From: an uncultured virus (IMG/VR IMGVR_UViG_3300046336_000146)
Taxonomy: Duplodnaviria > Heunggongvirae > Uroviricota > Caudoviricetes
Direction: 5' to 3' (one strand)
DNA: 21,475 nt
Virus record (IMG/VR): IMGVR_UViG_3300046336_000146
Positions within the stretch are counted from its first letter, which is position 1; each line of letters starts with the position of its first letter. Under the pieces are notes generated by a model that did not search any database, was not told the origin of the DNA, and saw nothing but the letters and a program-made list of their open reading frames with translations. The translations under genes were made by a program, and so were the position numbers. Shown here in pieces: positions 2,482 through 15,067 of this stretch.

Positions 2482-3201
2482 ATGGAACAAAGAGATTTCT
2501 TAAATAAGTTATTAGAGAAAAACAAGTATTACAGAAATGGTGAGATAGAGATATTGTCTGTTTACAAAGGACAAAGAGAATATGTTATTGTAAAAGATTC
2601 TTTAGGTTTATATAATTTTTATCCTAAAAATCTTTTAAGCGGTAAAAGGCCCACATTTAAATCATCTATAACTAAGAGGGAGCATTTTATAAAAATCGTA
2701 GAAAAAGTGCACAATAATTTTTATAATTATGATAAGCTGTATTTAGAAACTAAATCTGACTATGTTGAAGTAGGTTGTCCTATACATGGGTACTTTAAAG
2801 TGAGGGCTGACCACCATGAGAGTGGTGTAAAATGTAGGAATTGTAATCAGGGTAATCCTTTAGGAATTTTTAACAAAGGTAATGCAGAAAACCACAAAGA
2901 GGAATGGTTAAAAATATGTGCATGGTTATATTTTTTAAAAATAATAGCAAATAACGAGACTTTCTTTAAGGTGGGTGTAGTTACAAAGAAAGATATAAAT
3001 AACAGATTAAAAGAGTTTCCAAAACATTATAATATTAAGGTTATTTATTTTGAGAAGGGAAATCTGTATGAACATACAATTTCAGAAAGTAGAATAATAG
3101 AAGATTTTAAAACTTTACAATACACATCAAAAGAAAATTTTAGGGGTAAAAAAGAGTGTTTCTCAGACAATCCATTAGAATATTATTATAACTATAAATA
3201 A
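2482..3201 (+). CDS. Putative free-standing homing endonuclease (Zn-ribbon-like repeat plus GIY-YIG-like C-terminal domain)
   Basis: CPIHG...CRNC motif; WLYFLK-x7-FFKVG, RLKEF, ESRI and GKKECF resemble T5orf172/GIY-YIG-type domains. Confidence 0.6.
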   Translation: MEQRDFLNKLLEKNKYYRNGEIEILSVYKGQREYVIVKDSLGLYNFYPKNLLSGKRPTFKSSITKREHFIKIVEKVHNNFYNYDKLYLETKSDYVEVGCPIHGYFKVRADHHESGVKCRNCNQGNPLGIFNKGNAENHKEEWLKICAWLYFLKIIANNETFFKVGVVTKKDINNRLKEFPKHYNIKVIYFEKGNLYEHTISESRIIEDFKTLQYTSKENFRGKKECFSDNPLEYYYNYK

Positions 3202-5399: not shown

Positions 5400-5406
5400 A
5401 TAATAT

Positions 5407-5646
5407 TAAAACAACACACAGAAAGACAAACAAATAATAAACAAGGGGAGACACCTGCGAAAACGAAGTTAATTACAAAACTATCAAGAGGTTTTACGTT
5501 TGTTGAGTATAATAGTTATATTGAATGGAAAGCTTTATCATTTATAAATATGAGAGTTTAGCCAGTAGGTCTGTAAAAATAGATTGAGCTTACGAACTTC
5601 TCGCATTTGATATAATTATTCCCATCTTGAGGGGTGTGTTGTTTTA
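5407..5646 (+). ncRNA. Unassigned structured RNA A (about 240 nt)
   Basis: Perfect 13-bp closing helix 5407-5419/5634-5646; 17-bp helix with 3 G-U pairs at 5511-5527/5604-5620; possible pseudoknot 5484-5489/5625-5630. Confidence 0.65.
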
Positions 5647-5650
5647 GCAT

Positions 5651-5757
5651 AAACTACTATAGTGGGTAAGTTAAGACTCTCCTGTAAAAGTGCTGTTCTC
5701 TTAGGATATAAATTACGCTAAGATAAATAAGTAAGTGTGCGAACACTATAGTAGTTT
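5651..5757 (+). ncRNA. Unassigned structured RNA B (about 107 nt)
   Basis: Perfect 14-bp closing helix 5651-5664/5744-5757; internal TCTTAG/CTAAGA hairpin. Confidence 0.5.
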
Positions 5758-5764
5758 TTAAAAT

Positions 5765-5889
5765 GACCAAGTGGCGGAAATGGTAGACGCATAGGTTTTA
5801 AAGGTTCGGTAATCAAGATGAGTGTATAAGCAATAGAAGCTCTGAGAGAAAAAGCCACCTAAATACAGGTTCGAATCCTGTCTTGGTCA
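5765..5889 (+). tRNA. tRNA-Leu(TAA)-like element with a 53-nt insertion in the anticodon loop
   Basis: Acceptor GACCAAG/CTTGGTC plus A discriminator; Leu-type D arm GCG-GAAATGGTAGA-CGC; T arm ACAGG-TTCGAAT-CCTGT; anticodon stem TAGGT (5792-5796)/ACCTA (5857-5861); no long variable arm; no encoded CCA. Confidence 0.65.
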
Positions 5890-7280
5890 CGATGCCAGAC
5901 AATATAATAGTAAGGTTACTGGTTCATGGAGTAGTTGCTAATTTAGTTAATTGTATCTCAAATACATTTCAGACTTTAGGTGACAGCTCAATTAGGTCTT
6001 CTATTACTGTAATCACAGTTGAAAATAGCGTGAGAAACTATAAGTAAACTGTGAACAGTTAAAATAAACAGTACTCCCTAAGTCAAAGCAATGTACATTG
6101 CTGGAAGTCATAGACAAACCAAGACTGTCTGTAAGGGGAAATCAGTAGGTAATCTGATTAAGGCTAAACATTGATCCTTTGTAAATTAAATAGAGACACA
6201 AGTGAGATGAAACGTAGTGGGAGACTAAATAGGCATTTATCCCATCGATGTTAATTTACATAAAGATACTAATCCTGAATTGGCAGGATGTTAATACCTC
6301 TACGAGTGCTTTGGTAGCGCAGTTAAAGAGGTGGGTAAATTTAATGGAGTGATCCTAGTATCTTTCAATGTTTAACTAAACTCAACGTACCTGCGGAGTA
6401 GAACATCAGGTGTAAAAACTCGGAAAACATTGACACGAGTATAAATAATAATATCAATTGTAAGATTGAATGTGTTGTTCCCTTGAGAAAGGAATCCGTA
6501 GCTATCTATCAGTGTAGACAACACAAATGAATCTTAATATATGCCCTATTTATAGGGCATATATTAAATTTCTAATAAAAAAATCATGATAAATGAAGAG
6601 TGGAGAGATGTACCAAACTATGAAGGATTATATTTAATAAGTGATTTAGGGAACATTAAATCTAAATACACAGATAAATTATTAAAGCCATCTCAAGATA
6701 AATTTGGATATGTTAGATTTTCTGCAACTAAAAACAAAAAGCAAAAGACCTTAAGAATTCACAGAATAGTTGCAGAAATATTTATACCAAATCCAAAAAA
6801 TTTACCTCAAGTAAATCATATTGACGGAAACAAATTGAATTGTGCAAAATCAAATCTTGAATGGTCTACTGATTCTGAAAATAAAATACATGCATATACA
6901 AATGGATTAATGATTGGAGGCAATCAATATTCTAAAAAAAGAAAAGATTTACCAAGATATAAGTTGAAATCTACCAACTTTAATTAGAAGATTATAGTAA
7001 TATAATCCACAGATGAAAATGTAAAGAGATAAGTTTCTATAAACTGTGAGAAGTTCTCAGCAAACAGAAAAACCAGTTAGTAATATGAAAAATTATACTT
7101 GAAAGCTGCAATTATCTGTGTGACCCTACTCTTATTGCAGATGCCAAGCAACTAATATAAGACAAGAGGGTGCTCAAAAATATCAAACTTTCGACCCTCT
7201 CCCAACAAAGTGCTACACCCACGGAGTTGAACAGCGAGAGGACGCTACCTGAAAGTGACACAGTGACCTCACATTCGAGG
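5890..7280 (+). ncRNA. Large ornate RNA, ROOL-like (GOLLD not excluded), interrupted by an HNH ORF; ends approximate
   Basis: Lies between two tRNA genes. Ordered motifs GGAGTAG, GACTTTAGG, GTTGAAAATAGCGTGAG, CAAACCAAGACTGTC, GTAGGTAATC, GTGAGAAGTTCTCAG, GCTCAAAA and TGAACAGCGAGAG match my recollection of ROOL. Many helices, including pairings across the ORF. Confidence 0.6.
6586..6987 (+). CDS. NUMOD4-HNH homing endonuclease (133 aa)
   Basis: EEWRDVPNYEGLYLISDLGNIKS (NUMOD4); HRIVAEIF...VNHIDGNKLN..KSNLEW...EN..H (HNH_3 type). Confidence 0.93.
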   Translation: MINEEWRDVPNYEGLYLISDLGNIKSKYTDKLLKPSQDKFGYVRFSATKNKKQKTLRIHRIVAEIFIPNPKNLPQVNHIDGNKLNCAKSNLEWSTDSENKIHAYTNGLMIGGNQYSKKRKDLPRYKLKSTNFN

Positions 7281-7286
7281 TAAACA

Positions 7287-7358
7287 GGTCTCGTAGCTCA
7301 GAAGTAGAGCAAGGCACTCATAATGCCGAGGTCGGGATAGCATAATTCCCCGAGACCA
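7287..7358 (+). tRNA. tRNA with CAT anticodon (elongator Met or lysidine-Ile), non-canonical D and T loops
   Basis: GGTCTCG/CGAGACC acceptor, GCTC/GAGC D stem, GGCA-CTCATAA-TGCC anticodon arm, AGGTC variable loop, GGGA/TCCC T stem with AGCATAA loop; no encoded CCA. Confidence 0.75.
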
Positions 7359-12844: not shown

Positions 12845-13213
12845 ATGAAGTTAATAATTAAAGAAGGAAGTACTAACTATGCTTGTAGTGTAGTAGAAAT
12901 TAAAGACTTGTTTCCTATAGAAGGGGCAGATAATGTTTTAAGAGTAGTTGTGAATGGAAATAATGTTGTTGTACCTAAATCGACAGAAATAGGCAGTAAA
13001 ATGTTGTATTTCCCTTCAGGTTGTAAGCTTAGTGAAGATTACTGTAAAAATAATAGTCTCTACGATAAAGAAGAATATAATTTAGACAACACAAAGAAAG
13101 GGTTTATATCTTTTAAAAACAGGAGAATAAAATGTTTAAGGCTCAGAGGAGTCGTCTCTGATGGAATGTTGATGCCTATAGAAAGTTTAAATTATATAGA
13201 AAATGATAAGTAG
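12845..13213 (+). CDS. RNA ligase, N-terminal fragment (DRB0094-family N-domain)
   Basis: PIEGADN...RIKCLRLRGVVSDGMLMP resembles the OB/tRNA-binding-like N-terminus of DRB0094-type ligases; no ligase catalytic motifs. Confidence 0.75.
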   Translation: MKLIIKEGSTNYACSVVEIKDLFPIEGADNVLRVVVNGNNVVVPKSTEIGSKMLYFPSGCKLSEDYCKNNSLYDKEEYNLDNTKKGFISFKNRRIKCLRLRGVVSDGMLMPIESLNYIENDK

Positions 13214-14159
13214 TATAGGAAAACACTATCTTTACCGTCATATTAGACTTGATACAAAAGAGCCTTTTTACATAGGAATAGGGACAAAAAGAAATTGTAA
13301 GAACTTTAAGCCTGTGTATGAAAGAGCTTTTGAAGTCAAACGAAGAGGTTCTTTTTGGAAAAATGTAGTGAGCAAAACAGATTATGAAGTTGAAATTCTA
13401 TTAGAATCAGACGATTATGAGTTTATTAAACAAAAAGAAATTGAATTTATTGCTTTATATAAAAGAAAAGATAACTGTAACGGAACACTTGTAAATCTAA
13501 CTGACGGTGGAGACGGGTTTTTAGGACGTCACACGAATGAAACAAAACAAAAAATGATAAAGACTAAGGCTTTAAAAAAGGACACAGTTATTTTATCTAT
13601 TACAGATAAGGTTATATCATTATACTCCAAAGGTGTGATTATAACAGAAATTTCCAAAATAGTAAAAGCAAATAAAGATATAATAAAATCAATATTAAAA
13701 AAGGAGGGCGTGTTAAAAAACTCTTCAGATTATAAAAAGGTATGTTTTTATGTGTATAATTTTAAAAATGGAAGTGTAACTTACTATTATTGTAAATATA
13801 ACGAACTATCTAAAATATTTAAAATTAATGAAGGGTGTATAAGAAATCATTGCTACAAGAAAAATAATATTACTGATTGTGGTTATCTTATTTTACAAAA
13901 AGAAGTGCCTTTTGAAGAAGCTAAGTTAGAGTACAATAATAGAGTTCTTAATAAGTGTAAAGTAGAAAAAGAACAAAGAAAAACTTATCAAAAGTACAAT
14001 AAAATTGTTCAAAAAGACCTAAATGGTGAAGTTATTAAGATTTGGGACAGGATGCAGGATATTATTAACGAGCTTGGATTAAAAAATAGTACACCAATAC
14101 TAAGAGTTATAAAAAATCAAAGAAAACATTTTAGAAAATTTATATGGGAAAGATTATAG
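13203..14159 (+). CDS. GIY-YIG homing endonuclease with a NUMOD1-like C-terminus
   Basis: YLYRHIRLDTKEPFYIGIG, KEIEFI and LVNLTDGGDG; C-terminal IVQKDLNGEVIKIW...FIWE. Confidence 0.85.
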   Translation: MISSIGKHYLYRHIRLDTKEPFYIGIGTKRNCKNFKPVYERAFEVKRRGSFWKNVVSKTDYEVEILLESDDYEFIKQKEIEFIALYKRKDNCNGTLVNLTDGGDGFLGRHTNETKQKMIKTKALKKDTVILSITDKVISLYSKGVIITEISKIVKANKDIIKSILKKEGVLKNSSDYKKVCFYVYNFKNGSVTYYYCKYNELSKIFKINEGCIRNHCYKKNNITDCGYLILQKEVPFEEAKLEYNNRVLNKCKVEKEQRKTYQKYNKIVQKDLNGEVIKIWDRMQDIINELGLKNSTPILRVIKNQRKHFRKFIWERL

Positions 14160-15067
14160 AAAAATTAAAAGTAGGAGACGGGTTTACAGATATAGAGATA
14201 AATGGAAGGTTATATCCTATTTGTGAAAAATATATTGTACCTGTTAAAAAAAACAGTCAGGGTGGAGTAAAAGCTTCAAAAACTAATAAATTAAAAGATT
14301 TAATTTTAGATAACCAATTCAGGTTTCATCACGAAACAGAACATTTTGCTAGACATTTAGATAAGTTTACACAAGATACAGAAGTGATTATCACTCGTAA
14401 ACTTCACGGAAGTAGTTTAATTTTATCGAACGTTTTACTAAGAAAGCAATTATCTTTAAAAGAGAAAGCTTTTAAATTTTTGGGAGCGGAAATCCCAACA
14501 ACTGAATATGGTGTTATTTGGTCATCAGGTAAACCTAGGGGAAAGCTTCCAAAAGGGGTTGAATCAAAGACAAATAAATGGGAAACACCTAATCCAAGTT
14601 ATTATTCTTTAGATATTTGGGAAAGAGCTTATAAAGAAATAGGAAATAAGGTTGAAAAAGGAATTTCATTATACGCTGAAATTATAGGGAAAGGTATTCA
14701 GGGAGATCAGTTTACTTATAACCAAGATTATGGGATTTATGTATACAGAATTACTCAAACTTCAATAGAAGGGAATTTGGTGGAATTTTCTTGGGAACAA
14801 ATTAAAAAATATTGTGAAAAATATGGATTAAACTGTGTAGAGGAATATTTTGTAGGTAAAATTAAGGAACTAACTACTGTAGAAGGAGAATTACTACCTT
14901 TCTTACAACAAAAGTATTTAAATAAATCATACCCAGATTGTAGAATTGATGAAGGAGTTTGTATTAGAATTAGAGAAACTGATGAAATATTCAAATTAAA
15001 ATCTCCTAATTTTATTAAAATGGAGAGTGATAATCAAGAAAAAGGAGCAGAAGAACAAGAGAGTTAG
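14144..15067 (+). CDS. RNA ligase, catalytic nucleotidyltransferase fragment (Rnl2/DRB0094-like)
   Basis: Motif I TRKLHGS, III YAEIIG, IV DEGVCIR, V FKLKS. Confidence 0.85.
   Translation: MGKIIEKLKVGDGFTDIEINGRLYPICEKYIVPVKKNSQGGVKASKTNKLKDLILDNQFRFHHETEHFARHLDKFTQDTEVIITRKLHGSSLILSNVLLRKQLSLKEKAFKFLGAEIPTTEYGVIWSSGKPRGKLPKGVESKTNKWETPNPSYYSLDIWERAYKEIGNKVEKGISLYAEIIGKGIQGDQFTYNQDYGIYVYRITQTSIEGNLVEFSWEQIKKYCEKYGLNCVEEYFVGKIKELTTVEGELLPFLQQKYLNKSYPDCRIDEGVCIRIRETDEIFKLKSPNFIKMESDNQEKGAEEQES

Follow-up and report, generated by a model that had tools for sequence, protein, structure and literature searches.

The 21,475-nt stretch of DNA analysed here (the window) lies at the end of IMGVR_UViG_3300046336_000146, a virus record that is complete at 145,475 nt. 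The record is present in freshwater metagenomes, with eight runs containing at least 0.8 of its words and three of these being possible sources; runs with a small share were left out of this habitat reading. A relative in Cellulophaga phage phi14:2 suggests a Bacteroidota host.

The stretch flagged in a preliminary description, 5890-7280, lies between two Rfam tRNA matches (Table 1), neither of which was called as a tRNA by ARAGORN, and contains a single ORF, encoding a NUMOD4-HNH protein. The description proposed that an HNH gene interrupts a structured non-coding RNA next to tRNA genes. Both points are borne out: tRNA matches occur on both flanks, and a profile of ORF-less alleles of the RNA matches on both sides of the ORF (E 9e-26 and 3e-12). 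The 1.4-kb interval is a row of separate RNA modules, of which the central one, 6161-7176, is the interrupted RNA.

Table 1. Features of the interval and its flanks, in window coordinates
Feature	Position	Strand	Basis
tRNA-like element, anticodon arm enlarged by a 54-nt insert	5765-5889	+	Rfam tRNA, 48.8 bits
Upstream module outside the core family, with the first motif copy	5903-6065	+	Fold z -0.3
Separate small conserved module	6069-6160	+	Homologs L050, L126 and L140, E 1e-16 to 5e-19
First canonical 5' part of the family RNA	6161-6358	+	Blocks in 54 aligned alleles; pair counts
Putative trace of an earlier invasion	6359-6469	+	Layout as seen after antisense HNH genes
Canonical core helix with inner hairpin	6470-6530	+	Upstream pseudoknot partner AUG, 6527-6529
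Strong terminator-like hairpin opening the cassette	6529-6572	+	21-nt arms, 90% complementary; z -8; terminator scan
NUMOD4 + HNH endonuclease, 133 aa	6586-6987	+	Pfam NUMOD4 and HNH_3; PDB 1U3E chain M
Putative substitute 5' half	6961-7051	+	Covariation in 29 sequences; triplet counts
Native 3' half of the family RNA	7052-7176	+	Conserved strand, optional variable helix, terminal helix 7120-7133/7160-7174
Separate small conserved module	7191-7280	+	Pattern matched by 19 viral loci, most with the same layout
tRNA, CAU anticodon, unusual T arm	7287-7358	+	Rfam tRNA, 46.2 bits

The insert of the tRNA-like element has other letters in a near-identical relative, and similar elements with yet other inserts occur in L055, L128, L149, L163 and L195; such variable inserts could possibly be processing signals or decoys. 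A CAU-anticodon tRNA with a non-standard T loop recurs in another phage (L077, 601-675). Upstream of the tRNA-like element, 5403-5670 belongs to another, larger conserved non-coding family with nine distinct matches and relatives in L159, L077, L131, L078 and L053. Farther away, the region 464-2444 holds a reverse transcriptase gene (1067-2047, Pfam RVT_1) flanked by two similar small ORFs. The ORFs at 2482-3201 and 13203-14159 have no Pfam match and by eye resemble further free-standing nucleases; the latter splits 12845-13213 from 14144-15067, which may be halves of one gene.

The outer modules are distinct from the core. Neither a search of 425 loci nor an 18-base scan found a match to 5903-6065, and in one run's contig 5999-6065 sits 1.6 kb from the core. 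The 6069-6160 module and its three homologs form covarying hairpins. The 7191-7280 module, which has no Rfam family, is often found in viral loci (L451-L468) right after the family RNA and before a tRNA or the 5' end of a tmRNA, and its variable stem carries the second copy of a motif that the preliminary description had noticed at 6018 and 7226. This repeat is real, as the whole genome holds two copies and none of 1000 shuffles yields one, but both copies lie outside the conserved core; the motif occurs in none of the 98 family elements, nor in the ROOL control locus. A motif-based viral scan returned 35 loci, none of them homologous.

Cross-ORF pairings and known RNA classes

The interval had been described as one giant ROOL-like RNA, running from 5890 to 7280 and held together by four complementary pairs. 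The named pairs are exact in the sequence, but such pairs are not above chance: between 5890-6585 and 6988-7286 there are 48 exact complements of at least six bases, 17 of at least seven and 2 of at least eight, against means of 47.7, 12.7 and 3.3 in 500 shuffles each. Three of the four pairs use 5918-5939, upstream of the conserved start of the family at 6161, and one named arm, 7126-7131, falls within a strand (7120-7133) that pairs locally with 7160-7174. The proposed bracket around the ORF (6570-6576/6983-6989) has a 5' arm that other cassettes do not retain. Of the long helices spanning the ORF, the best one (5999-6014/6990-7005) was set aside because 6990-7007 forms a local hairpin with compensatory changes.

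The ROOL covariance model (RF03087, cut-off 99.1 bits) gave no match in the genome or in any of five records with ORF-less alleles of the RNA, and the same genome search scored the ROOL of L. salivarius at 130 bits. Since cmscan reported no ROOL match on this very control locus (L469), its negatives for large RNAs weigh little and the genome search was preferred. GOLLD (RF02032, cut-off 150 bits) was likewise absent from the genome in a search that had no positive control over the cut-off, and in the five records produced only two 5-bit matches, both away from the locus. Like ROOL and GOLLD, the core is a multi-junction, pseudoknotted phage RNA near tRNA genes. It differs from both in its size (200-550 nt), its own conserved blocks and the lack of pairing between its two ends. 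ROOL is about 581 nt long with six multistem junctions plus three pseudoknots according to the available part of its description (PMC5737381), whereas empty alleles of the present family span 251-557 nt, its substitute type 185-301 nt, and one pseudoknot has covariation support. A single giant RNA thus appears extremely improbable: its tRNA-adjacent context fits, and an ORF-less relative has an RNA-library contig extending from 5903 to roughly 7136, which makes co-transcription plausible, yet the modules occur separately, the pairings that would join them are at chance level, and no model matches in a search whose ROOL control passed.

HNH genes are often carried by group I introns (PMC2988022, in the part available), and the cassette, or the whole RNA, might be a self-splicing intron. 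The Intron_gpI model matched only elsewhere in the five records and not at the family locus, with 2 of 14 controls over the cut-off; the flanks of the family RNA are variable, with no conserved exons, and non-coding sequence in the cassette amounts to only about 150 bases. Contigs from RNA libraries of close relatives are without the cassette and join 5903-6188 (3 differences) to an ORF-less core, although a contig is no proof of a single transcript and these libraries have no silent-DNA control. Four further DNA runs yielded short pieces without an informative joint. The joints carry other letters, so they represent empty alleles rather than splice products, and we consider an intron highly improbable. 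RNase P RNA (RF00010) was absent from the five records (8 of 14 controls over the cut-off). A GibS match (33 of 115 bits) proved to be merely an AT-rich hairpin, and a resemblance between the 3' junction and the SAM-I riboswitch came to nothing, as no Rfam match was obtained and the pairs equivalent to the riboswitch's first helix show free variation.

A phage RNA family with mostly ORF-less alleles

Judged by shared blocks and helices, the core is a member of a phage RNA family without an Rfam match. The family was reached from a short match to phi14:2, through shared blocks, to pattern scans. These gave 190 loci, from which a script extracted 61 elements, the element-finding patterns favouring the canonical type. 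The preliminary description had called for ORF-less alleles, and they are the rule: 54 of the 61 elements, 251-557 nt long, have no sense ORF. Across 54 aligned alleles the layout runs from a 5' hairpin through a GNRA hairpin and a helix around an inner hairpin to a conserved strand, after which come an optional helix and the terminal helix; the stretches in between vary. Several helices show two-sided changes; the most conserved ones are invariant. The inner hairpin loop could also form a second pseudoknot with the conserved strand, but no two-sided change is seen there. An 18-base family pattern found 22 stretches in genome contigs, seven of which are family members; all seven lie in MAG contigs of unrelated taxa and are probably mis-binned phage DNA.

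In phi14:2, an ORF-less member lies in the g004-g005 junction, on the strand reported to be transcribed. The available part of a preprint on this phage describes a rightward long non-coding RNA from that junction, above most genes in level, abundant from the earliest time point and persistent, and gives it no name, structure, family or function (bioRxiv 10.1101/2020.03.07.982082). In the literature covered, which is incomplete, we found no account of how the family is structured, nor of an RNA gene containing a cassette of this kind, and four family motifs were absent from six supplement files of PMC10690425. Cellulophaga phage phi4:1 gave a weak match (E 4) that was not confirmed.

In the window, the canonical 5' part starts with a hairpin carrying the pseudoknot triplet CAU (6169-6171), followed by a second helix and an expanded third helix. 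In the next stretch, 6359-6469, 16 nt match the end of L082's antisense HNH gene; behind them lie another 5' hairpin (6419-6439, with its triplet at 6428-6430) and, at 6454-6469, a GNRA hairpin. Within this stretch, 6415-6469 matches L146 (E 0.02), and 6366-6374 can alternatively pair with the loop of the second hairpin. The conserved bases expected after 6527-6529 are altered.

The HNH nuclease at its insertion point

The protein resembles I-HmuI in its NUMOD4 and HNH domains over residues 5-109 (PDB 1U3E, E 4.6e-15). With 133 rather than 174 residues it lacks the C-terminal third of I-HmuI, and unlike I-HmuI it does not sit in a group I intron. H78 and N99, the active His and the last Asn, align with I-HmuI positions 75 and 96, which we take to be catalytic. 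A cysteine (C86) replaces the middle Asn, and an Asn replaces the Asp before the active His; this cysteine is common to the window, L227 and L264 only.

Phages commonly carry NUMOD4-HNH genes (583 related stretches). Among 80 HNH relatives, the best four lie at the family RNA and the other 76 do not. The proteins inside the RNA fall into two clades of nine and three rows (SH-aLRT 99 and 100, in a quick tree without bootstrap). Pairwise dN/dS values of 0.12-0.49, from 15 pairs of six intact clade-A ORFs, indicate that the HNH ORFs are under purifying selection. A third HNH type, antisense and further upstream, is intact in L043, L082 and L146, in each case followed by a second 5' hairpin, and relics of it occur in L255 and L276, two loci that the script had merged; the window's 6359-6469 has this layout without the ORF, and would be the trace of such an earlier invasion.

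These features bear on the idea that the HNH genes are passengers, trapped by tandem duplication or recombination and without site-specific homing. Such genes are common enough in phages, and tandem copies without a full ORF do exist (L046). Against this, two HNH clades occupy the same point and are confined to the family RNA, the genes are under purifying selection, and a changed triplet (see below) always accompanies the HNH gene, so that we regard mere passengers as quite unlikely. Homing as the reason for the interruption, which the preliminary description had offered as one of two options, is likely.

The other option was that RNA and nuclease act together, as a ribonucleoprotein akin to HEARO or OMEGA RNAs with IsrB or IscB. 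The ORF overlaps structured RNA, its last codons overlapping the substitute 5' hairpin, and the loop of the 5' hairpin is conserved and open. But most alleles have no ORF, many ORFs have decayed, and the HNH proteins are of three unrelated types, one of them antisense. The protein itself is I-HmuI-like, and Pfam returned only NUMOD4/HNH_3 or HNH, with no constant partner of the IscB/IsrB type. The HEARO model matched in none of the five records, in a search without a positive control over the cut-off. We see very little room for this reading.

For expression of the ORF, a promoter scan restricted to the sigma-70 type gave no signal above shuffles, and no RNA contig covered the window's own ORF. 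Hairpins equivalent to that at 6529-6572 occur in other cassettes.

A variable pseudoknot in a probable substitute 5' half

The HNH ORF is probably not just looped out but comes in together with a replacement for the 5' half of the RNA. The insert starts after 6530, at a fixed insertion site, and the 90 bases behind the ORF are conserved whether the ORF is present or absent. A scan for the 3' junction of the cassette gave 119 loci, 32 of them with a family match. In an alignment of 29 substitute halves, in which the pseudoknot columns are misaligned between subtypes, 92.3% of cells are paired, compared with 26-49% in slid controls; 16 of the 27 pairs change on both sides and the first hairpin is invariant. 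The module repeats the order of parts of the canonical 5' half. In the window it consists of a hairpin with the triplet UCU (6970-6972), a GNRA hairpin (6990-7007) and a helix (7008-7012/7044-7048) enclosing an inner hairpin, with the partner triplet AGA at 7049-7051. A 156-nt RNA-library contig covers 6974-7129 without differences, in a library that has no silent-DNA control.

In both types of half, the triplet in the first loop complements the three bases just before the conserved strand, and the 3' strand of this pseudoknot ends at the insertion site. Among 98 elements, 90 could be assigned; the triplet is fully paired in 84 of these and mismatched in six (in this set L270 is malformed). 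The types are CAU/AUG (62), UCU/AGA (12, including the window's cassette), CCC/GGG (9) and GUU/AAC (1, and also L302), with UCC/GGA seen by eye in L298 and L084. Only one of the 120 permutations of the five triplet types pairs as well. The upstream and downstream 3' triplets differ in all 12 loci with both halves. No 3' triplet of a clade-A cassette ends in G, whereas those of the alleles entered do. L302 holds a CCC/GGG half, a clade-A HNH gene and a GUU/AAC half in tandem. Its upstream half is preceded by the tail of another ORF (760-880), which suggests a fourth invader.

A covariance model of the substitute half gives canonical 5' halves only 17-27 bits (E 0.01-0.7), about 18-20 of which come from a shared tail, and intermediates score 31 (L084), 46 (L096) and 53 bits (L302). 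Homology between the two halves is weak by model score and would rest on the layout, the triplet and these intermediates.

Decaying cassettes and a looped-out alternative

The 22 cassette-type alleles comprise eight with intact ORFs, three with broken ORFs, four with short relics and seven with none (alleles with at least 600 nt upstream; L243, L321, L332 and L467 were left out). The site thus shows both empty and occupied alleles, the latter decaying, as in a homing-type allele series. Three of the seven ORF-less cassette alleles (L068, L281 and L288) also lack the canonical 5' blocks upstream, and L227, L238, L318 and L323 have a truncated upstream half. The stand-alone alleles are indirect support that the hybrid RNA may be expressed and functional.

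An alternative is a tolerated loop insertion: the RNA would fold from the upstream canonical part and the 3' half, with the whole cassette pushed out as a domain that its own helices close off. Such a looped-out fold would suit the 6 of 11 cassette alleles that retain most of the conserved strand upstream, and non-coding hairpins stand at the same point in L040, L046 and L063. It accounts less readily for the matched triplet that the 3' module of the cassette carries, for the occurrence of this module without a canonical half (L068, L281, L288), or for the truncated upstream halves and the altered upstream strand of the window. We therefore view a tolerated loop insertion as unlikely.

Discussion

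We consider it likely, from comparison of the alleles, that the locus holds a homing cassette that recodes its own target and supplies a substitute 5' half to mend the RNA. The HNH protein would nick the empty allele at the conserved site, and repair would copy in the hairpin, the ORF and the substitute half. The 216 bases 6961-7176 would then fold as a complete RNA, with no splicing needed, and the changed triplet would make the occupied allele resistant to the nuclease. The cassette would have to bring both strands, because the 5' hairpin that contains the triplet's partner is far upstream. The working RNA may be cut out of a long transcript of the tRNA cluster, and the hairpin 6529-6572 may limit expression of the ORF by attenuation. 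The upstream half would become dispensable and the ORF would decay, leaving a new RNA subtype open to invasion by another nuclease. More tentatively, and as a reading less likely than not, we propose that a three-base lock-and-key pseudoknot of a widespread phage RNA has been serially recoded by homing endonucleases, each bringing a new 5' half with its own triplet pair and gaining immunity, then decaying and leaving a subtype behind.

The closest likeness is to the hybrids of mobile endonuclease (mORF) genes with fungal mitochondrial genes, described, in the part of the source available (PMC3630166), for atp6 of Allomyces macrogynus and for atp6, atp9, cox2 and nad3 of Glomus. There, too, a mobile endonuclease gene brings a divergent duplicate of part of its host gene, and the displaced native part can drop out of use. 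The fungal hybrids concern protein genes, with a C-terminus placed before an ORF of the LAGLIDADG type; here the host is a non-coding phage RNA, a 5' half follows an HNH ORF, and both strands of a pseudoknot are recoded. The fungal hybrids have been shown to be mobile (same source), whereas mobility here is predicted from sequence. Free-standing enzymes of T4, such as SegB in the tRNA cluster, offer a parallel for homing without an intron (PMC2988022, PMC2330249) and for hairpin control upstream of the ORF (PMC2988022). Going by the accessible portions of these sources, the T4 enzymes are intergenic and cleave far from the point where they are inserted (PMC2988022), whereas the present HNH gene lies inside an RNA gene. 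What is new here is a NUMOD4-HNH ORF accompanied by a covarying, predicted substitute 5' half that joins the native 3' half. If true, endonuclease-driven gene repair extends from mitochondrial protein genes to structured non-coding RNA, and a selfish gene drives compensatory change in a tertiary contact.

ROOL and GOLLD form an RNA-only multimeric cage (bioRxiv 10.1101/2024.12.08.627333, in the part available), and several of their predicted pseudoknots proved to be intermolecular contacts. By analogy, the triplet may be such a contact, in which case recoding would also decide which RNA copies assemble in mixed infections. As to function, the weakest step of this reading, one speculative and rather improbable guess is that the family RNA is an abundant, stable and compact decoy or scaffold acting on host translation or defence proteins, and that it would do so alongside the phage's tRNA and tmRNA genes.

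The phage seems to need this RNA, since repeated invasions would restore it each time. In the substitute-type alleles the RNA is reduced to about 200 nt, and compensatory variants of it occur naturally; together with the cultured phage phi14:2, this minimal form would make the function of an abundant, unexplained RNA testable.
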